Part shown: piece after piece, positions 1,133 through 57,792 of the stretch
Layout of the letters: each line of letters begins with the position of its first letter
Numbering within the stretch: position 1 is the stretch's first letter
Made by a program: the position numbers and the translations under genes
NCBI GenBank assembly: GCA_034780895.1
Contig: JAUZTB010000074.1
Coordinates: 11,629,127 to 11,693,126, forward strand
Direction of reading: 5' to 3'
DNA: 64,000 nucleotides
Origin: Rhynchobatus australiae
Lineage: Eukaryota
The notes under the pieces: model-generated
Seen by the model: only the letters and a program-made list of their open reading frames with translations
What the model was told of the DNA's origin: nothing
The model's database searches: none

Positions 1133-1324
1133 GCCCCGTGGCTGTGATGAGTGGTGAGGAAGACTCCGGCAGCCCTCTCCACCACATTAATCATGGGATT
1201 ATCACACCCTCATCCATGGATGTTGGACCAGACGCAGTGGTTATTGGGATGACCCGGATCCCAGTGATTGAAAACCCCCAGTATTTCCGGCAAACCCATA
1301 ACCTCGGGAAGCATCCAGAGACAT
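1133..1324 (+). CDS. NTRK3: NTRK3 (TrkC) internal exon, cytoplasmic juxtamembrane region with NPQY Shc/PTB docking site
   Basis: Acceptor gctcttttgcAG ends at 1132; donor GTaagt starts at 1325; 192 nt, phase 1/1. Peptide (G)[63 protein letters not shown] closely matches recalled human Trk[64 protein letters not shown], and fits TrkB (GPASVISNDDD...ISNG...QYFG) less well. Confidence 0.96.
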
Positions 1325-10400: not shown

Positions 10401-11574
10401 CGGTCAGGAATTTTTAAAGGGCGATTACAATATTTTGGGTTAAGACCAACTGGAAAGAAGAGCAACCTGACTGTCTGTCCCCATCAGCAACATTACAGGG
10501 TGAGTTGGCTCAGGAACTGCTCCAGGTCCGACAGATGTTTCTTGGTAGTTAAAATTCTGCCAGAAATGGTCCAAATGGATTCAAAAGCCTTTGGCTGCAG
10601 TCTTGTTTCACAAGTAACTTTGCCTATGAGGCACACAGTGATGTTATCATCCAGACATTGTGATGATCCAATTTCACTGAATCCGAGCATTCATATCGAG
10701 GATGTAGAGCAGTGCCTGTTAAACACCTGAAAATTATGAAAACTTTGAAATACACTCTGACCTTGCTTAAGCTGACCCCATTAATTTTTTATGTGGCATT
10801 GCTGGCTGCCTGATTTCCCAGCCCAAACCTGATGAATGATGGTGGCTCCATCAGTATCTTTACTTATCAAACAGTGAGTAAAACAGCTCATTGCAAAAGA
10901 TGAATTGAGACATTGAAAATCTGCTCCCCAGTCACCAAGACCTACTTTCATGTAATGTTTTTGTATTAAAAACTTACACTTGACATTTGAATGGAACTTT
11001 AAAATTCAATCCCTGACTAGAGCAGTTGTTTGGAAAACCCTTATTGAACTTTAAAATGATAAATTGTAGTTAGTACTTTAGTATCGAGAGAAATATATAT
11101 TGAAGTGAACTTTAATTTTCTAGGTGTTGATTTTAAGTTGTGATTACTGGTCACTCAGCAAAAAATGTTATTAGGTTATTATGGGTCAATTTATTAAAGT
11201 GTTGTGTTTGGCTCGGAGCCACTGTAAACCCTGCAGTAGCCCCAGAGCCCTCCTTAATATCTGAGCTGAGATTGTACTTTGGGACAGAGCAGTCAGCAGA
11301 AAGTGCCTGGCAACTATTCTTCTACTTAAAAACACTGCAAACGCTGCAGGGGACAGACTTACCACAAGCACTGCAATGGGCAGAAAATACAGCACAGGTA
11401 CTGCGACAAACAGAATTAATTCTACAGCTCTATTCCAATGGATGGAAGAAACAGAAAGTGTCAGAAATTAACAGCATGGGTACAAAAATCAATCAACTTA
11501 ATTCTGTGAATAAGAAACAAAACAATAAGCAATATAAGAGGCAGAGATTGTACCCTGAATCTATAATGGGCAGA

Positions 11575-15865: not shown

Positions 15866-16220
15866 GTAGAACAGAGAACAGTACAGCAGAGGAACAGGCC
15901 CTTCGGCCCACAATGTCTGTGCCGGCCATGATGCCAAATTAAACTAATTCGATCTGCCTGAATGTGGTCCATATCCCTCCATTCCCTGCCTGTTCACAGG
16001 CCTGAATGTTGCTGTCGTAGCTGCTTCTACCACCTCCCCTTGCAGCCCATTCCAGGCACCTACCGCTCTCTGTGTAAACAAAAACTTGCTTCGTAAATCT
16101 CCTTTACACTTTCACCCTCTCAACTTAAAGCTACCTCCTCTAGTATTTGATATTTCCATCTTGGGAAAAACACTCTAACATTCTGTCTATCTACCTTGTC
16201 TATGCCTTTCATTATTTTAT
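15866..16220 (-). mobile_element. CR1 3' tail
   Basis: agaacagagaacagtacagcagaggaacaggcccttcggccc...; same family as 4366-5105. Confidence 0.85.
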
Positions 16221-18529: not shown

Positions 18530-19000
18530 CCATGGGTCTGTGCTCTATCTGTGCCCTGGGTCTGCACTCTCTCCGTGCCCTGGGTCTGTGCTCTCTCCAT
18601 GCACTGGGTCTGCACTCTCTCCGTGCCCTGAGTCTGTGCTCTCTCCATGCCCTGGGTCTGTGCTTTATCTGTGCACTGGGTCTGTGCTCTCTCCGTGCCC
18701 TGGGTCTGCGCTCTCTCCGTGCCCTGGGTCTGCGCGCTCTCCATGCCCTGGGTCTGCGCTGTCTCCGTGCACTGGGNNNNNNNNNNNNNNNNNNNNNNNN
18801 NNNNNNNNNNNNNNNNNNNNNNNNNNNNNNNNNNNNNNNNNNNNNNNNNNNNNNNNNNNNNNNNNNNNNNNNNNNNTCTGCGGGCTCTCCGTGGCCTGAG
18901 TCTGCGCTCTCTCCAGGCCCTGGGTCTGTCCTGTATCGGTGCACTGGGTCTACGGTCTTTCCATGCCCTGGGTCTGGCTTTATCCGTGCCTTGGACCTAC
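18530..19000. repeat. 24-bp minisatellite (tgggtctgtgctctctccgtgccc)n
   Basis: At least 14 near-identical units visible, spanning a gap; explains the 8-aa periodic ORFs in several frames. Confidence 0.95.
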
Positions 19001-32892: not shown

Positions 32893-33305
32893 GAGTTATA
32901 CAACACAGAAACAGGCCTTACACCCCAATTCACGCATGCCGACCAAGTTGCCTATTTGAGTCAGTCCCATTTCCCATCATTTGACCCATACTCCTCTAAA
33001 CCTTTCCTGTCCGTGTGCCTGCCCAAATGTCTTTAAAACATTGTAATCGACCCACCTCTACCACTTCCTCTGGCAGCTCATTCCACAGAGCCACCACCCT
33101 CTCTCAGTAAAAAAATTACCCCTCAGATCCTTTTAAATCTTTCCCATCACACCATAAGTCTATGCCCTCTAGGTTTAAACCACCCTACCCTGGAAAAAAG
33201 ACAATGACCATTCAACTTATCTATGCCCCTCATGATTTTATAGATCTCTATAAGGTCACCTCTCAGCCTCCTACACTCCAGGGGAAAGATGTCCCAGCCT
33301 CTCCA
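32893..33305 (-). mobile_element. CR1 3' fragment inserted into the RTE
   Basis: gagttatacaacacagaaacaggcc...; minus-strand peptide LECRRLRGDLIEIYKIMRGID. Confidence 0.85.
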
Positions 33306-35011
33306 GTCTCCCGTGAATATTTTCTGCACGCTTTCCAGCTTACTGCCATCCTGTTCTGGATTCATTATGATGATCACTTGCATGATACCTTGATGCAGAA
33401 GCAAGATGGAAATGAATTTCCTGGGCAACACGAATTAAAGAGAGTGTTCCACAATCCTTCTCAGTTGAAGGAGTCAAAGGCTTCAGTGAGATCAGAAAAG
33501 GCCATGTATAGTAGTCGGTGCTGCCCCCTACAATTTTCTAGGAGCTGTTGGGCATTGAATGTCTCGTCCACTGTGCCTCCAGAGACATGGAATCCACACT
33601 GCGATTGGCGAAGCAGCTCTTCGACGCTGAGAGAGGGTGGTTGAGGAGGATCCTNNNNNNNNNNNNNNNNNNNNNNNNNNNNNNNNNNNNNNNNNNNNNN
33701 NNNNNNNNNNNNNNNNNNNNNNNNNNNNNNNNNNNNNNNNNNNNNNNNNNNNNNATCCTGGCTTCTTCTCACAGTAGAGGGAACCTTCTGTAGTTTACAT
33801 AGTAGGACTTGTCTCCTTTCTTGAAGATGGAATGATTACATCATCTCCAAGGTCCCCTGATGTACAGTATATACTCCTTTTTCTTGATGTGACCAATGGG
33901 CTTGTGGATTCACAATTAACCTCTTCGCCACCAAGTTCAAACTTCACTTGGGGTACAATCTACTCCTGAGGACTTGCAGATTCCCATACCAGCATGTAAT
34001 TGGCCCTGTTCTAGCCCAATCCATCTTACCCATTTGTGTTACAAGTTATAAGGGAAGGTGTTTTCTTGATTACATTTCAGCTTATTTAATCTGAATTAAA
34101 GGAGATCCTTGTTCCAAGTCCCTCACTACTACCTGTGTAAAAATGAAGTAACGTGTATATCAACACATGCTTTTNNNNNNNNNNTCTGTGAGAAGGAGGT
34201 TCAGTATCTGAACGTCATTCCCTTGAAGTGCTGTCAGGAAGAGGCTCTCTGCATCTTGGAGCAGCTCTGCTCACATTAATTGGCACCAGATCTGTGGAGC
34301 TGCAGCAGGTCCACCTTCCCTGGAACGCTCCCTACCCAGGAGCATATTAAACCACTCATAACGAGCACAGTAAAAATAATTGACTCAGTGTGCTCTTATT
34401 CTAGCTCTGCATATAGATGCCAATTATAATCTGGTCACTACCTGTCACCTATGAACGTTATATGGTCACGGACTGTGGGGGCACTGTATTTGAATTCATG
34501 AGCTGAAGACAAAAGGCCTTTACCCTCCAATCTCATTGAATGCAGATTAGGGGCTAGGGGCTAGGGGCAGCGTTTATTGTCTGTACCACATCTACCGTCA
34601 CATATAGGCCAGGCTTGGTGAGGATGGCAGATTTTCTTCCCTGAAGAACATTAGTGAACCAGATGGATTTTTAAGACTAATAGTGAATTGAAATTCTCCA
34701 TATGCCATTGTGGGATTCAAAATCATGTTCAGTGACATAACCACTACCCCATATGGTATTCATTTGAAGTGAAGCTAATTCGAGTGATTTAGTAAGAGTT
34801 TTGCTGAGGTTATTAGTTGATTACCTCCTTATTTCAGAGTTTCCCAATTCCAGTTTTTGACTAATTTCTGTAGTGATTCCCTGGTTTGTTCTTTTATTGA
34901 CAAATATGTCTTCTGTAGTGCATGTTGCATTGTGCCTTTACAAATCTCCTTTTCATCAGTAAATAGTGCCTGTGAACTGTAGACAGTTGGAAGAGTCTGT
35001 CATGGGGGGTC

Positions 35012-35770: not shown

Positions 35771-36069
35771 GTGAGAAGCTGTCCATTTCACACTCCTTTT
35801 GAAGTGGTTTCAATTGTGCTGTTAGTTAAGCAAGTAATTGCTTCCTCAGACAGCCTATTGTCATCTCCTGACTGCGTCCACCTCAGAAAACACGCGGGTG
35901 AGTGAAAGGAACAGCAAGCTGGCTAGTGCTGTGTAAATGCATGCATCAGGGGGTCAGATAAACTAAAACAGAGAGGAGAAGAAAACATGACCAGGTTTTT
36001 CAGGTGACATATTAGACAAAAATCATTTATTGAAAAACTGCAGATAAGTGGGTGGAGGTTGGTGCAACA

Positions 36070-36715
36070 CCTGGGTCTGCCCCCTCCCAGTCTCTATCTG
36101 ATGGATGCCTCACACCCAAGCTGTATGTGTCGGGTTTCTCAATCCCAGTCAATATCAGCTGGGTCTCTCCCTTCAATCTGTATCCACTGGAGGCCTTGCT
36201 CTCTGTCTGTATATGCTGGGTCCCACAATCCTGGTTTGTAACTGCAGGGGCCATCACTCCCACTCTTATATCTGCTGGGTACCTCACTCTGGCACTGTAG
36301 GTGCTGAGACCCTCACTCCCAGTCTGTGTCTACTGGGCTCTTTCTCCCATTTTGTACCTGCTGGGTCCTTCACTTACAGCTATATCTTCTGGGGCTCTTG
36401 CTCACAGTCTGGGTCTACTGGGCCTTTACACCCTGGTCTGTATCTACAGGGGTCTTTGCTCCCAGGTTGTACCTGCTGGGGTGTTCATTGCCAATCTGCA
36501 TCTGCTGGGACCCTCCATGCCAAACTGCATCTGCGGGGTCCTCACTCGCAATCTGTACTTGATGGTACCCTCAATCCCAGTCTGTGTATACTGAGGTCTT
36601 CACTGCCAGTCAATATTTGTTGGGGTCCTTTGCTTCTAGTCGATATTGATGGACCATTCATTCCCAGTCTATTTCTACTGGGTCCCTCCTAGTTTGCATC
36701 TGTTGGGTCATTCAC
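36070..36715. repeat. Degenerate ~30-bp minisatellite (ccagtctgtatctgctggggtccctcactc-like)
   Basis: About 20 diverged units; explains overlapping ORFs at 36027-36692. Confidence 0.8.
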
Positions 36716-37209
36716 TACCAGATAGCACCTGGTAAATCACTACCACCAATATGAGGGCGGGTTTGCTATGTCGGCCCTGCGTTCTGGATGTGCTCTTCAG
36801 ATGTATCAATGCACATTTTTCTGAAGTGGATTACCTGAATTGTCTTCTTTTTACTGCACAGCCATTCCTGAGATTTGAGTTTGCCATTTACTTTGCAAGA
36901 TCTTGGGGAAGTATTGCCTTAATATTATTGATAATGCCCAGTACTCATTCATGCCTCTTGCACATTCATTTCTTTTGAACTCAATGAAATCTAATGTATG
37001 AAGCCAGTCCTTATGCATGTGATTAGTGCAAGGCACCAAGGATAGATAGTTCCCCTTTAATATTAGTGTAAGATAGAATTTACCTGAATAAGTTTGTCAG
37101 AACTTCTCAATTCTCTGTTGATTTTTACACCAGGGTGAGACCCCAACACTGCTGCCGTGTAAAACTTTCTAACCTTCAGAACATATTAACATGCAATTCC
37201 ACGTCCCGC

Positions 37210-37460
37210 TTCAGGGCATTAAAGCTTCCATGTGACTACTTAAGAGCAGGGAGTTCCTCTGATATTTAGGACAACATTTCTCCCAAACCACCACCCAAAG
37301 CAAAGCAAACTAGTAAATTCAAGTCACTATTATTTACAAGGTCTTTCCAGACGTAAAATGACTGCAAATTTATCCAATTGCAAACAGTCAACACGCTTCT
37401 GAGTAGTTCATTAAGTATAAAGTATTTTCAAGAGATGTTATAAAGCACTACATAATTCCA
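37210..37460 (+). mobile_element. Degraded Deu-domain SINE just upstream of the putative T1 exon
   Basis: ccatgtgactacttaagagcagggagttcct...gacaacatttctcc...aaaatgactgc...aaagcactacataa. Confidence 0.5.
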
Positions 37461-37614
37461 ATTCATCAGGCTCCAAACTGGCAAAATTTTCTTGTATATT
37501 TTAATGTTTCAGTTCTGTTTCACCATGTTTAATTTCAGTTCTCTTTTCATTTGCATAGTTTTAATTTGATGTTTTCTGTGTTTTTTTTGTTTGTGTTCTG
37601 TTTTTCTTTTTTAG

Positions 37615-37670
37615 GTTTTAAAGAGTCGACGGTCACAATACCTAACCCACCCTGGGACCTGTGCTACTGA
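37615..37670 (+). CDS. NTRK3: Putative alternative terminal exon of NTRK3 giving a kinase-less, TrkC.T1-like isoform (CFKESTVTIPNPPWDLCY*)
   Basis: A >40-nt T-rich tract (37571-37612) ends in ttttttAG at 37614. Joining to the leftover T at 1324 gives TGT TTT AAA GAG = C F K E, like the recalled amniote T1 exon start C/G-F-R-E. TGA at 37668-37670. Confidence 0.62.
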
Positions 37671-40156
37671 AGCAGGACAGTTAGACTCAAGATGCCAAAG
37701 ATTTGAGTGTGTTTCACGTGCTCTTCATTTGTTAAAACCTTTGTCTCCGTTTGTGTCCATCCTTGTGCCCTTACTTATTTTCTTTCTCTGTAAGCTGCCA
37801 CTCATCTAGGGTGGTGCATGCAGAGTAGAAAGACCCAAACTTAAGCCCAGGCCAATGATTGACACATCATCCGGGACTGGGGAGGGAGAGGATCAATCCA
37901 AATCCCAGTTTCTGTCCATTATCCTGTGAGTGGGTGCAAGTGTGATATCAGGTGAGAACAAATTCTGGTTTGGATGTGATGCCCCTCACATTCAAATAGC
38001 CTGCCAACTACTCACACCCCAGTGGCCATTTTGGGTGAGGTGTTGTAAGGCACAGAAGCAAAATTCCAGTGAGAATCCGTATTCTCAGCAGAGGAGGAGA
38101 AAAGCGTCTGACTTCATATTCTCCACTGTGTGAAGGTTTAATGATACTGGGTGGGAATTGCACAAACTACAACAGCCAATCACAAAAAAATGACCAAGGG
38201 CCATGCCCTGGAACCAGGTAGACTTAGCAGTCCACTGACTCCAGTCAGTCAAGGACAGTGCCTGTTATATCTCCATTGCAAACCTCAAGCTTAAAGAAAC
38301 TTAAAACGTGGTACAGATGTGCTTGAGCAAGCAAGAGGAGCAGCAGTCTTTTTCGTCCCGTNNNNNNNNNNNNNNNNNNNNNNNNNNNNNNNNNNNNNNN
38401 NNNNNNNNNNNNNNNNNNNNNNNNNNNNNNNNNNNNNNNNNNNNNNNNNNNNNNNNNNNNNNNNNNNNNNNNNNNNNNNNNNNNNNNNNNNNNNNNNNNN
38501 NNNNNNNNNNNNNNNNNNNNNNNNNNNNNNNNNNNNNNNNNNNNNNNNNNNNNNNNNNNNNNNNNNNNNNNNNNNNNNNNNNNNNNNNNNNNNNNNNNNN
38601 NNNNNNNNNNNNNNNNNNNNNNNNNNNNNNNNNNNNNNNNNNNNNNNNNNNNNNNNNNNNNNNNNNNNNNNNNNNNNNNNNNNNNNNNNNNNNNNNNNNN
38701 NNNNNNNNNNNNNNNNNNNNNNNNNNNNNNNNNNNNNNNNNNNNNNNNNNNNNNNNNNNNNNNNNNNNNNNNNNNNNNNNNNNNNNNNNNNNNNNNNNNN
38801 NNNNNNNNNNNNNNNNNNNNNNNNNNNNNNNNNNNNNNNNNNNNNNNNNNNNNNNNNNNNNNNNNNNNNNNNNNNNNNNNNNNNNNNNNNNNNNNNNNNN
38901 NNNNNNNNNNNNNNNNNNNNNNNNNNNNNNNNNNNNNNNNNNNNTGAGCATTGTACGGTGTGCATTGCATTACAAACAGAACCCTTTCATCCCAGGCACA
39001 TGATAGCAGCTGATAAGTTAGAGTCAAGAGTGTTCAAAGATGTTGTTGTAGGGTAAAAAGAATGGTTTACTTCCAAGTGGTCCAAAGGAAGGAGTCTCGA
39101 AGATACGTGTAAAGAATTGAGAGGCAGGTTAACTCCTTACACTCAGAGTGCTTAGAATTTTGTACCGGTGCCACTAATTGCTGAATTCAAAATCAAATTC
39201 TACAAAGAGAGGACAGCTGGAAAAGATGGAGCAGCAAGGAGAGCGTCTCCAAGATTTATGAAAAAAATTGAGAGGCAGTCCAACAGAAGAATCTTTACAC
39301 TTGGAGTGCTTAGAATTTAGAATCCCTGTCACAAATTATTGCTGAATTTGAAAACAAGTTCTACAATGAGAGAGCAGCTGGAAGAGGGAGCAGCGGAAGG
39401 GTGGGATTCTCATCGAGCCAGCCAGCAGAGATTTGGTGGGTTGAATGGCCTGTTTCTGTGCAAGAAGCTTTCATGATTCTGTCATTTTAAATATACAGGA
39501 TTTTACATATTTTTTAAAAAGGCAAAAGAATTTGTCCTTTGTAGTTTGGAAAACCTGAGGGTTTCAGAAGCAAGTGCCACAGTGGGACTTTGCTACGTTG
39601 TTCTCAGGATGTGATAGCATCAAACCTGAAACAAGAGGGAAATCTCACTTTGTAGAATATTTATTTAGACAAATGAAACCTGTGACTTGCCCACCCTGCC
39701 CCTCCCTCTAAGCCACTCATTTAATCTCCTCACCATGAAATATTGTTTGCCATCAGTGCGTATAATATAATTGTGGATGAGCTACTGAGCAGCCCTGTTG
39801 GAACTCTGCAGGGGTCCGTAGAGATTTCATTATTGCATTCTTATCTGTGGCATTTTCAACACAGATGCTGGTCTCCTGTCCTGTGGGATCCCCTGTTTTA
39901 AAGACCCAACAGCTTCTTTAGTTCATGCACGTCAGAGGGACCACAAGGAAATACTACAATCAGCCTTTAATCTGCTGTTTTACTTCAGGTTGCTTTGTTT
40001 AATTTTTAATGTTCTCAGAATCAACCGTAAAATTGTAATGATTTCAGAAGATTTATTCAATGTAATTAAAGTTTTACAATTTATTATATATGTGGTTGAT
40101 TGATTATTTAGTCAGGTATTCAGATGGCATATGTATGAGATATAGGTACACTGTAC

Positions 40157-40202
40157 AATAAATATATCCATACATATGCAAAGTCCAGATCATATCAATA
40201 AA
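40157..40202 (+). terminator. Candidate polyadenylation signals for the truncated NTRK3 isoform
   Basis: AATAAA at 40157-40162 (just after TGTA) and at 40197-40202; ATTAAA at 40065-40070. First AATAAA seen downstream of the 37670 stop, ignoring the gap at 38362-38943. AT-rich context. Confidence 0.35.
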
Positions 40203-41299
40203 TGGTACCTTGCTGGAACATAGCAAACATCTATAGTCAAGGTACTGGGTAAAATGCTGCACCGATACACAATGAGGGAAGGTAATACAGGAAAATATAT
40301 CACTGCAGTGAAATTGTTCCCACTGTAAGCTTAGGCTTCTGGGGGTTACTGTTGAGCTTTGTGACTAAAATTCTAAAAGTGATCTTGCAGAATTGGGCGA
40401 AAATCTCAAGCAACAACCTTATTGCTGAATGCCAGTGGAATACAAAGCACCAGGCTTTTCACAGGAACACTAACAGTCAAAACAACACAGAATGTGACAG
40501 AGTGACACATGGAGGGGTGACCAAAAGCTCGGCCAAGGAGGTAGGCTTAAAGAAGTGATGAAGAAGGGAGGTAGATGGGAGCTTTACAGAGGGAATTCCA
40601 AACCTTTGGCCCCAGGCAGCTGAAAGCCAGTAGTGAAGTGATTAAGTTTGAATGTGCAAAACAGGCTGCTTTGGTTTATATTTTCCTGATTTCAAAGTGG
40701 AACACCAAGCAGTTTGAACCAGAATGATATGTGAGGGTCCCGTCCTCCCCATTCTCTCGTACTAACACATGTCGGAGCTCAGGAGAGGACAGAACAAATA
40801 CCAGTAACAGCAGCTTAAGAGTGAAATGACATCCCCTCCAAATCCACAGTGTGAAGTTGCTCTGTCTCTTAAATGCCCAGCTGCTTGTGGTGTCTGTGAC
40901 ATGTGGTGTTATCTGTAATTCATGTTCAATAATTCTCCTCGACAATTACTGGGAGATTATAGGAGCTTAAAATGAAAAAAAATCAAGAGCTTTTTGTTCA
41001 TGCTTAAATCTGAGTCTTGACAATGAAATAGNNNNNNNNNNNNNNNNNNNGGTTTTGTTAATTACTAACATTACTCTGTAACTCACCATCACCAAGCATA
41101 ACAAGATAGTGGTTATTTGTTCAAACTCAATTTAGGATGAAATTATTGTAAAACTGATGTGAGCATTAAAATTACTGATGGAGAGAAATTGTTCTTTCTT
41201 TGTTAAAACATTTGCTGTTACACATTTAATGTTATCAGTGAAGTAATAAAGTTTATTTGAAATGGCTGTCAGCCCTTTGGCAATGTTGATGGATTTTAA

Positions 41300-42120
41300 A
41301 CAGTTTTACAGGACATGCACCTCAGCAAAGGTTCACTCAGTGCCATTGGCTGTCAGCATGTCCAGGAGTACAAACAAGGCAGGCATCAACAATGGAACTT
41401 ACTGCATTTTCAGGATTTCCAAAGAGTGTTTTGGATTGTTTGGTATTTTACCAAATGAAGCTGGAATCGGATTTGAATTTTTTGAAGTGGGGAAAGGGAT
41501 GAGTAATGTCCTGTGTGGATTGTTGCCTGTGGTAGGAACTGTTCTCTCAACAACAGAGTGGGCCACAGGTTCCTGATGCCAGCGTGTTGCGTTGGAGTGG
41601 GTAAGTACCAAGTTAATCTTAAACAATAGGTTTTTCAATCCTAGATGTTCAATAGCATAAAGGCTTCAGAAACGCAGGCAGCTGAACTGGCTGTCTTGAG
41701 TCATGAAGCTCTGATAGCACTTTCCTAGGGCTGAAGGCCACTCAGCTTCTTGTCCTCAGGTGGGCTCTTTGAAGAGGTCATCTAATTTGCCTCCAGTCTC
41801 ATTCACCTTTCTTCATGCTCTTGAATTTTTTTTCTTCACGAGCAAAGTTACATTGAAGCTCGGTCCAGCTCTCCCTCTGCCAGTACATCAGTCTAAGTGG
41901 AAAATTTTCTCTTTTCTGATTCTTGTTAAGTCATCCCAGGATGTTGAACCAGTTGATGCTAGTGCATATGCTGTATGTCAGTGTTTGGTGATTGTTGTGA
42001 ACTATCAGCCTTTTGTTGTAGGAGTGGAATATGCAGCTTACTGTTGTTTTGCAATGAATATTGTCCTTGGCATGGATCTGAAATTGCCAAAGACTGTGGG
42101 ACAGCAAAATGGGGTGACGA
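41300..42120 (+). pseudogene. Probable PIF/Harbinger transposase fossil
   Basis: Ordered motifs in shifting frames: AFSGFPKSVLDC (about 41405), W..GS/DASVLRWS (about 41560-41600), CQCL..YQP.....CCFAMNIVLGMD (41976-42080). Compare recalled HARBI1-family GFP.VIGAIDC, WPGS.HD..VL..S and FRCL...QYSP.....CCVLHNISL..GMD. Confidence 0.4.
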
Positions 42121-43078: not shown

Positions 43079-45214
43079 TTTGAAAGGCCATTTAAATGAC
43101 CTTTCAAAAAATAAACCAAAACCTCCTGAGCTGAGCAACATAACATTGAACAGGGATATTTTTGGTCTGCGTGAGGAGCTAGTTAGTTCTGAATTATATT
43201 ATTTCAGTGAAAGGTGATGTCTGTCTCAATACCACCACATGATTGTGGAATGGCAATCTACCTTAGTATCTGTGAATTATTTTTAAGTAAGGAAGGCAAT
43301 GTCTGTCTCAATCTATCAGTAACATCATGTGAACAACCGCAAAGACCCTTTGAAACCTGCAGTACTGAGCAGACATGAATCGCCTGCTTAACATATGGAC
43401 AGCTGACAAACTATGTGGAAATGAGTTGTTCTGATGGTTCTCTTGAGAGGGATAAGGAATGGGCTGTAATTCTGTAGCTAATCTGGGTGGGATAACATGA
43501 AAGAGTGTAGGAATATTCATTTATTAGTACTTGTTCTGCGCATGGGAGAAAGATATTGTGCAGCAGGACTATTCTAAAGTTAATCTATGCCTCTCTCCAC
43601 CCCTCTTCCAGCCCCAAGTATTTACGTATAACAAGAAAAACAGGAAAGGCTTCATGGTTAATTGTAAACCATCTTGTGCCCTTGATATCACCCAGCAGAG
43701 CATTGAGAAAGCATCCAAATGGAGTTCAATTAACGATTGGAAAATATATAAGGAGAGTATAGTTTATATTGGCCACAGCAGGCAGACAATCCCACTGATG
43801 TGGAGACCTATGGTGTTCAACGGCCAGTTTTCTCAGGCTTTTGTTTTGCCGTTGTCAACAAAATTAGCCGCATCTATTGCTACCAATATTCCTAGCCAGA
43901 ATGGAAATGATTGGCTAATTCTCCCATCAATCATACCTGACAACAACACTGCTACAAAGTGACCAGGATTGATTTTATGTCTATAATTTGTATGCCACTA
44001 TTCTCCAGTTACTACTTTTATATTCACCCTGATTTAATCAGGTGATATTAGCATATGTTGGTTGAGTTTTGTGTACTGTAGTTCAACAGCAATTTTAAAA
44101 ATGGACTCCATAAACTTAGTTATTGCAATGTACCATTTAAGTAGACTCTGTAGACTGGTTGTTGCAGTATTTGTTTAAATAGACTCCATAGAGTGGTGTG
44201 TGCTGTTTAAATAGACTCTAGTTTCTAGATGCACCATTGCACTATTGTTCTATTTAAACCTTAAACCAAGTGCTGAAATGTTCTGTTTCCATAGACCCTG
44301 TTCTGTAAATAGACCAGTTATTGCTTAAACTCCTGTTTTCAGTCTTATCGTAAGTTTTACTCCATTTAATTGGTGGAAACAATACCACCCATGGACAACG
44401 AAACACAATGATGTTTTTAGGACCATTTTCAAAGGCAGATACCATTTCTATCAGTTTCATTTGCATCTCCTTCAGATTTGTCCTTTCTTTTGGTCTCCTT
44501 TGTTAAAGGAAACTATCACACCATACGCAGTTCTCACATATAACCCATTACCAGAAATCTCTTTAGTATCTTTCTTCTTCCTTCCTTCCTTCTTCAAGAG
44601 CCAACACTGTTTTATTCATATGACTTCCAGTGAGGTTTTTGATACATGTTCTGTTTTGTAGACTGCGTTAAGCAATGGGTGGAAGTTGACTCAATTAAAT
44701 CCAGTGACCAGTAGGTTTCATTCATCAGTTCAGGGCAACATTGAATTCAAGTTAACCATATGAATTGTGGTCACCTTGTCAACTGTGCTGCCTAGTTCAA
44801 TGCTTTTGTCTCCCACTGAGCAGTTTAGAGGTTCCCTGGAGATTTTTTAAACATATCAATGCTCCACCAAATTAACTGAATAATAGGACAGGGACGTGAG
44901 GAAACATCTTTTTTATTTAACTAATATTGGTGTTGGAGCTTTTAAGGCTTGGAAGTTAGTGTCAGGTCTTGTAACCTATAACATGGTGAACTGAGGAGAA
45001 TGCTTCAAAAGAAACCTGATATACAGAAACTCTTTTCTTCATGTTCCTCTCCTTGCAATGGGATTTTTTTTTGCAGTGCGTGATATTTAAACAGAAGGAT
45101 GATGTCAGCTTTGGCTGGGTGTTAATATTCACATCCCAGAATCAGATATTTGTAAATTCATATCCCAGTCTATGACTAAGCACACAAAACAGGCTGACAC
45201 CCAGTTCACCCACG

Positions 45215-56989: not shown

Positions 56990-57792
56990 TGAGTTGTCCT
57001 GGGCCCAACACATAGGTGCTGTGATAAGGAAGGCGTGCCAGCATCTTTTCTTTCTTAGGAGATTAAGGAGGTTCGGCTTATCACCAAACACTTCAAAAAA
57101 CTTCTACAGATCTAATGTTGAAGTATCCTGACTGTTTGCATCATGGTCTGGTATGACAATTCGAATGCATAGGAACATGAGAAGCTACAGAGAGCAGTGG
57201 ACTCTGCACAATACATCACGGGCATATCCCTCCCCACCATTGGTAGTATCTACAGGAGGCGCTGCCTCAAGAAGGCAACATCCATCATCAAAGATCCCCA
57301 CCNNNNNNNNNNNNNNNNNNNNNNNNNNNNNNNNNNNNNNNNNNNNNNNNNNNNNNNNNNNNNNNNNNNNNNNNNNNNNNNNNNNNNNNNNNNNNNNNNN
57401 NNCAAAGATCCCCACCATCTGGGCCATGCCATCTTTTTGCAGCTACCATCAGGCAGGAGGTACAGAAGCCTGAAGTCCCACACCAGCAAGTTCAAGTGCA
57501 GCTACTTCCATTCAACCATTTGGTTCTTGAACCAACCAGCAAAACCCTAATCACCACTACAGTTTAGCAACACTATGACCACTTTGCATTAAAATAGACT
57601 TTATTTTGTTCTAATTGTGTTTTTTCTTGTAAAAATTGTGTATAGTTTATGTTTAATTGATATTTTTCTTGTGAATGCTGCTTATATTATGCTATGTGCC
57701 TGTGATACTGCTGCAAGTAAGTTTTTCATTGCACCTAGGCACACATGTATTTGTGCAAATGACAGTAAACTCGACTTTGACTTGGACTTTGA
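56990..57792 (+). mobile_element. Rex1/Babar-type LINE 3' 0.8 kb
   Basis: SWAQH...FFLRRLRRFGLS; DSAQYITGISLPTIGSIYRRRCLKKATSIIKDPHHLGHAIFLQLPSGRRYRSLKSHT; tail ctcgactttgacttggacttt. Confidence 0.9.

Follow-up and report, generated by a model that had tools for sequence, protein, structure and literature searches.

Does the NTRK3 gene of a cartilaginous fish carry a last exon of its own for a kinase-less TrkC receptor, and if so, how does that exon relate to the truncated TrkC of tetrapods? The question arises from a long T-rich acceptor far inside an NTRK3 intron, in the stretch of ray DNA analyzed here (64,000 nucleotides, hereafter the window). The sole NTRK3 coding exon found in the window is the juxtamembrane exon with the NPQY motif at 1133–1324 on the plus strand; its donor GT lies at 1325 and its final base is codon position 1 (phase 1). 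The protein encoded by this exon is 94–97% identical to elasmobranch NTRK3 and 83% identical to tetrapod NTRK3, and in the database it comes closest to an NT-3 growth factor receptor from a shark (94%). The encoding gene is NTRK3, as NTRK2 proteins score far below NTRK3 against a fish NTRK3 NPQY exon. A tblastn-type search of the sequenced part of the 64-kb window found no kinase exon, so the intron after the NPQY exon exceeds 62 kb and the alternative exon at 37615 precedes the kinase exons; 29 N gaps take up 4,645 of the 64,000 bases, and exons inside them would be missed. Near the start of the NPQY exon, a Met is common to all five skate and ray proteins viewed (5/5), with Ile in the shark and chimaera proteins, which points to a batoid as the most likely source, and at its end all cartilaginous fish proteins viewed have one extra residue compared with bony vertebrates. 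The window also contains degenerate tandem arrays at 18533–18994 (24-bp unit) and 36313–36544 (29/57-bp units), which yield long low-complexity open reading frames (ORFs). ORF pieces at ~2060–2425, 33111–33835 and 57173–57567 are, judging from their translations, presumably decayed LINE reverse-transcriptase fragments.

The initial annotation had proposed a phase-compatible terminal NTRK3 exon, 36 kb past the NPQY exon, that removes the kinase. Its coordinates and reading held, from acceptor and phase to the Cys junction, the 18-aa tail and the stop. Joining 1324 to 37615 creates a Cys codon, followed by FKESTVTIPNPPWDLCY and then TGA at 37668–37670. The translated portion of this terminal exon thus occupies 37615–37670 on the plus strand, with the junction Cys counted in its 18 residues. 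It is preceded by a long, T-rich polypyrimidine tract that reaches, with the acceptor AG (37613–37614), from 37510 to 37614 on the plus strand, as marked by T content, an AG-free zone and the starts of assembled contigs (see below). The same annotation had called this site the strongest acceptor in the window, which is only nearly true. The T content of the tract is indeed the highest among all 50-, 80- and 110-nt segments of both window strands (0.74, 0.68 and 0.62 T), and AG is absent for 56 nt upstream of the acceptor AG. By a crude acceptor score, the site ranks 3 of 3,894 plus-strand AGs and 5 of 8,003 when minus-strand AGs are counted as well, the score being a weak yardstick by which the known acceptor at 1133 ranks only 177th. 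Further high-scoring plus-strand acceptor-like sites lie at 44599, 16000 and 51348; read in phase 1, those at 44599 and 51348 meet a stop immediately, and the one at 16000 opens 59 codons.

We looked for the junction in assembled sequence runs. The query 37560–38360 matched at least 21 runs from 11 studies, and four runs from four organisms were compared over 36900–38360, namely three of the 17 guessed to be RNA (X1, X3 and X8) and one of the four large ones (X20, DNA-sized). "RNA-like" is a guess here: none of the runs is recorded as RNA, X1 is flagged as probably DNA, and the contigs give neither strand, tissue, level nor poly(A) site. Of the listed runs, these four alone serve as evidence, and the missing cover of X3 and X8 ahead of 37615 carries no weight by itself. 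In all three RNA-like runs, which represent three organisms and three studies, the first aligned base of the contig is 37615, and the loose 5' end ahead of it matches window positions 1295–1324, the 3'-terminal 30 nt of the NPQY exon, apart from a single mismatch in each case. This 30-mer is found once in the window. The DNA-sized run X20 covers 36900–38359 as a single piece and has no junction end there. The junction between the NPQY exon and the candidate exon was thus present in the sequence of other species, in 3/3 RNA-like runs. Upstream of the exon, the X8 contig extends over 1,806 nt (30 of these letters are displayed), which could accommodate the 1,549-nt upstream ORF and leaves room for a complete ORF of ~534 codons. 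The X1 contig has exactly 30 letters there, a break that would be expected where a second continuation branches off. Despite its probable-DNA flag, the joined X1 contig cannot derive from the genomic locus. One codon in the loose end of X3 agrees with Mobula and Hypanus proteins, and the three organisms with the junction may all be rays. X3 and X8 assemble the upstream exons and the alternative exon in one long contig, and X1 breaks 30 nt upstream; the truncated form may be dominant in some tissues, although contigs cannot show levels.

The contigs of X1, X3 and X8 also read across the stop and across six donor-like sites without a splice-type joint, which identifies an alternative last exon and not a cassette; the sole joint in them is a 232-for-235-letter replacement in X8. 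Together with the stop, the contig junctions support the annotated terminal exon and the removal of the kinase, and we regard it as almost certainly a real alternative last exon.

The exon is more conserved than the neighboring intron. Between X1 and the window, 21 of 739 nt differ in the exon (2 gaps), whereas the intron before it shows 34 differences in 490 nt (18 gaps; Fisher p = 0.001). X3 and X8 are ~9% and ~11% divergent, respectively, and the junction is kept in both. Among the 40 of 135 difference rows listed, which do not include 12 indel rows, the only coding-part change is C to T at 37647 (Pro to Ser) in X1 and X20; in these rows, the last six codons of the tail show no difference in the four relatives, and 37615–37722 shows none in X3 or X8. 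Moreover, X8 contains ~6 sampled words, whereas its 37615–37976 piece would yield ~1 under even divergence, an excess that hints at a near-identical block.

How does this exon compare with that of tetrapods? Tetrapod kinase-less TrkC proteins carry a 39–40-aa tail that is joined at the same point and begins with Cys-Phe (59 proteins). The long tail ending in RHGF had been described as an amniote feature; amniotes do have it, but frogs have a long tail too, with the end RHVF. In the tamalin paper, mammalian TrkC.T1 uses two exons, 13b and 14b (PMC2063819); 13b often precedes 14b in mammals. Many truncated TrkC forms of frogs, reptiles and birds also lack 13b, and the ray form matches this directly spliced 39-aa type, not the 13b-plus-14b type. 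Mammalian exon 13b had no significant tblastn match in the window (4,645 of 64,000 bases being N). Two frog models of truncated TrkC (P0059 and P0033) place a short segment of their own ahead of the T1 exon, with no relation to mammalian exon 13b; judging from these sequences, optional exons preceding 14b may have several origins.

Unanchored searches of the window gave no match to 13b or 14b that stood out. The best short T1-tail match elsewhere (10638–10706, E ~0.01) needs two large gaps and was rejected; the sequenced part of the window has no better T1 match, whereas a better one would, according to the initial annotation, have spoken against its reading. In an anchored test, the peptide read from every AG of the window (7,717 sites) was scored from its start against the tetrapod tail. 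Against the frog tail the candidate came first of the 7,717 sites (0/7,716 others reached its score, 0–1 with other gap costs and 46 of 7,716 without gaps), a score that relies on a one-codon gap in an alignment seen by eye before the test. Similarity to the amniote tail was modest: 27 of the 7,716 other sites were as good, and 25–63 under other gap settings. Among sites at which the AG is followed by GT, 0/462 reached the candidate's score against either tail. When the first Phe was left out, 2–10 (frog) and 231–437 (amniote) of the 7,716 sites were as good, and the amniote-tail similarity without this residue is not significant.

The 39-aa tails were also back-translated into a nucleotide profile, which aligned over 84–87 nt, past the ray stop. 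In three settings, 0, 2 and 0 of 1,500 sampled control sites were as good, as were 5 of 2,500 when only the first 60 nt were considered. The stretch past the stop, at 37667–37702 on the plus strand, weakly resembles tetrapod tail codons 19–30, with the frame shifted by one base and an in-frame TAG. For this stretch alone, 14–73 of 1,500 controls were as good within 3 nt of register and 55–61 within 12 nt; for a segment chosen post hoc, 18 of 1,500 were. The resemblance hints at, but does not prove, one ancestral exon read in two frames. Additionally, in a turtle gene model whose translation runs on through the intron preceding 14b, 25 of 33 residues are Phe, Leu or Tyr, compared with 17/33 here, indicating a similar long T-rich tract before exon 14b.

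Conservation of the splice site and first codons across jawed vertebrates, as had been claimed, is not what the retrieved proteins show, for among them the T1 tail occurs only in tetrapods. A search with the bird T1 tail gave 19 matches of 20 candidates, 19/19 from tetrapods, and missed the Rana cluster, so it was not sensitive. Lobe-finned and tetrapod proteins with the NPQY exon comprised 96 that continue into the kinase, 59 with the T1 tail and 29 others, and a T1-like tail was found in 0/4 coelacanth proteins. For ray-finned fish, no T1-like tail was present among the 120 of 157 matches listed for a fish NPQY exon query (198–630 aa); the 75 ray-finned proteins with the NPQY exon included 47 that continue into the kinase, 28 others and 0 T1-like, the 28 looking mostly like intron read-through. 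Likewise, among the 44 members of the cartilaginous fish clusters, the 19 in view (15/40 elasmobranch and 4/4 chimaera) showed no T1-like tail; the 17 of them that include the NPQY exon all lead on to the kinase (0 truncated), but 90% clustering conceals short-tailed isoforms under full-length representatives and 25 elasmobranch members were out of view. Absence of the isoform from ray-finned fish and from annotation is thus only suggested. A 30-aa query of intron plus tail gave a single match among 1.84 billion representatives (P0303), which was rejected as its match region has no Trk context.

On these comparisons, the exon is probably orthologous to tetrapod TrkC.T1 exon 14b, because it shares the intron and the phase and its start-anchored similarity ranks first against the frog tail. 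The main competitor is an independent origin in rays or elasmobranchs, in which truncation arose convergently in the same large intron and the shared first residues reflect chance and a T-rich acceptor context. Such an origin would agree with the low identity of the tails, with the weak amniote-only statistics once the first Phe is removed and with the lack of a bridging taxon among the ray-finned fish and coelacanth proteins. Moreover, at the paralogous position NTRK2 proteins carry a 9-aa tail of unrelated sequence (P0300, P0302, P0340, P0341 and P0344), so an intron of this kind can gain last exons more than once. However, the anchored protein and DNA-profile scores exceed those of nearly all control AG sites, the weak resemblance extends beyond the stop with nearly the offset that would be expected, and the phase and the long T-rich tract recur in the turtle. 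We therefore consider convergence unlikely.

A more specific form of orthology is offered tentatively and, as a whole, remains rather doubtful. It would place a kinase-less exon in the jawed-vertebrate ancestor and make the tetrapod tamalin-binding tail and the 18-aa ray tail two frames of one exon that a small frameshift set apart. Sequence that tetrapods translate would then persist in the ray 3' UTR, and ray-finned fish would have lost the exon. Truncation would have come first, with scaffold signaling added by a frameshift into the UTR.

Taken as a whole, the locus is best explained, and likely so, by an alternative last exon of NTRK3 that is likely a 14b orthologue with a shorter tail and that acts by a tail-independent mechanism. 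Splicing of the NPQY exon to 37615 would end TrkC 18 residues later, before the kinase domain. The predicted product is a membrane receptor of ~534 aa with the whole NT-3-binding ectodomain, the transmembrane segment and NPQY, but no kinase. Its ectodomain would account for most of its action, either by dominant-negative pairing with full-length TrkC or by acting as an NT-3 sink, and it may also serve as a synaptic adhesion partner of PTP-sigma. Dominant-negative and ligand-sequestering actions are the classical roles of truncated Trks (PMC2063819), and the synapse organization driven by PTP-sigma needs no intracellular domain (PMC7452315). The ray form would likely recruit no tamalin, and thus lack tamalin–Arf6–Rac1 signaling, because the C-terminal residues needed for tamalin binding are missing. 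Exon 14b is necessary and sufficient for this binding, which is lost when the last residue is removed (PMC2063819, unpublished data there). The ray tail stops after 18 aa, ends in neither RHGF nor RHVF and has no in-frame match to the tetrapod C-terminal half, in agreement with the divergent tail (18 aa versus about 39 aa, without the RHGF end) described in the initial annotation.

Could the short tail, which ends in Leu-Cys-Tyr, nevertheless bind tamalin or another PDZ scaffold, so that an orthologous exon would have kept its signaling? The hydrophobic-X-aromatic end of the tail and the invariance of its last six codons in the four relatives would fit this idea. By the class rules, the tetrapod ends RHGF and RHVF are themselves not textbook PDZ ligands. 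Conserved signaling is nonetheless improbable, as the tetrapod C-terminal half is unmatched in frame and tamalin binding needs the exact C-terminus (PMC2063819).

The tail-independent isoform proposed here can be set beside three known systems. Tetrapod kinase-less TrkC (TrkC.T1, also named TrkC NC2 or ic158, with 14b as last exon, and also a directly spliced 39-aa form known from proteins of frogs, reptiles, birds and mammals) comes from the same gene and the same intron. Like TrkC.T1, the ray form has its junction right after the NPQY exon in phase 1, a tail that starts Cys-Phe-basic-Glu, a long T-rich acceptor and a long 3' UTR (1,981 bp in the human truncated form, PMC3019150, versus ~2.5–2.9 kb estimated for the ray exon). 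Unlike TrkC.T1, it has a tail of 18 aa instead of 39–40, without the RHGF/RHVF end and without a match to exon 13b, and it is predicted to lack tamalin, Arf6–Rac1 and TNF-alpha signaling. Because its tail lacks the defining end, we do not file the ray isoform as TrkC.T1 proper; it is a variant that works like truncated TrkC.

The 9-aa tails of the NTRK2 proteins mentioned above are presumably those of TrkB-T-Shc. This form (NTRK2 exon 19) likewise keeps NPQY and then adds a very short unique tail (PMC3676832, PMC7452315), encoded in an alternative last exon that supplies both a stop and a poly(A) signal (PMC7452315). Unlike in TrkB-T-Shc, the gene here is NTRK3 and the tail is unrelated, making the ray form a functional analogue and not an orthologue. 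TrkB.T1 truncates before the NPQY exon. It is also kinase-less and uses an alternative last exon (NTRK2 exon 16) with a short 11-aa tail and its own UTR (PMC8934854). The gene differs, however, and rodents, human and chicken share an unchanged TrkB.T1 tail (PMC8934854), whereas the ray tail diverges from that of tetrapods.

A clean knockout of kinase-less TrkC has proved difficult (PMC8934854), and it is debated whether this receptor mainly dampens full-length TrkC or signals through its tail; tail conservation is one argument for tail signaling (PMC2063819). A spliced and conserved ray form without the tetrapod tail suggests that truncation is retained for tail-independent reasons. If the exons are orthologous, truncation would be as old as jawed vertebrates, and the truncated receptor may predate the scaffold-signaling route. 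The ray tail also offers a natural tail-swap control for mammalian assays. Kinase-less TrkC is reportedly abundant in mammals and is said to be the subject of drug-targeting efforts. The literature within our scope, which excluded most subscription papers and the 1993–1998 isoform papers, contained no account of a truncated TrkC from cartilaginous fish, and the word "truncated" occurs 0 times in the available text of a review on fish neurotrophins and of a paper on catshark p75 (PMC11785713, PMC11993139). The ray exon thus appears undescribed; truncated Trk isoforms themselves are already familiar, and no new pathway is revealed.

Downstream of the stop, the part of the 3' UTR covered by the contigs of X1, X3 and X8 occupies 37671–38361 on the plus strand, up to an assembly gap. 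The contigs extend to 38353 (X1), 38275 (X3) and 38358 (X8), i.e., 660–740 nt on the window. A probable distal 3' UTR lies at 38945–40220 on the plus strand and would end near AATAAA at 40157 and 40197. These are the first such signals after the exon start, and the gap at 38362–38944 could conceal an earlier one. From the exon start, the X8 contig measures 2,952 nt, compared with ~2,550–2,600 nt to the AATAAA region in the window, and we infer a long 3' UTR of ~2.5–2.9 kb.

A switch at the RNA level, in which the exon terminates transcripts early and lowers full-length TrkC while the protein is unstable or irrelevant, would account for conservation that spans the UTR and not the 18 codons alone, and for the missense change in the tail. 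It is highly improbable, given that X3 and X8 each contain the joined form within a single long contig and, indirectly, that the word excess of X8 and the lack of listed X3 or X8 differences in 37615–37722 hint at a near-identical block. A stop in the last exon predicts no decay by the exon-junction rule, which also counts against this switch. An artefact, in which the exon is of the cassette or poison type or the joined sequence comes from a processed DNA copy, could draw on the six donor-like sites, the lack of any run recorded as RNA and the DNA flag of X1, but is extremely unlikely since the contigs cross those sites unspliced, X20 lacks the joined form and the junction is identical to the base in three organisms.

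Rfam gave 0 matches in 36000–42000. The UTR contains one miR-128-type and one miR-9-type 7-mer versus ~1.4 expected over six seed motifs, which is at chance level. Behind 38353–38359, inside the N gap 38362–38944, X1, X8 and X20 share the same stretch of ~23–24 nt, which is conserved across these three organisms and holds a 7-mer that we take to be a miR-9 site. Human truncated NTRK3 has been reported to be regulated by miR-9 (PMC3019150).
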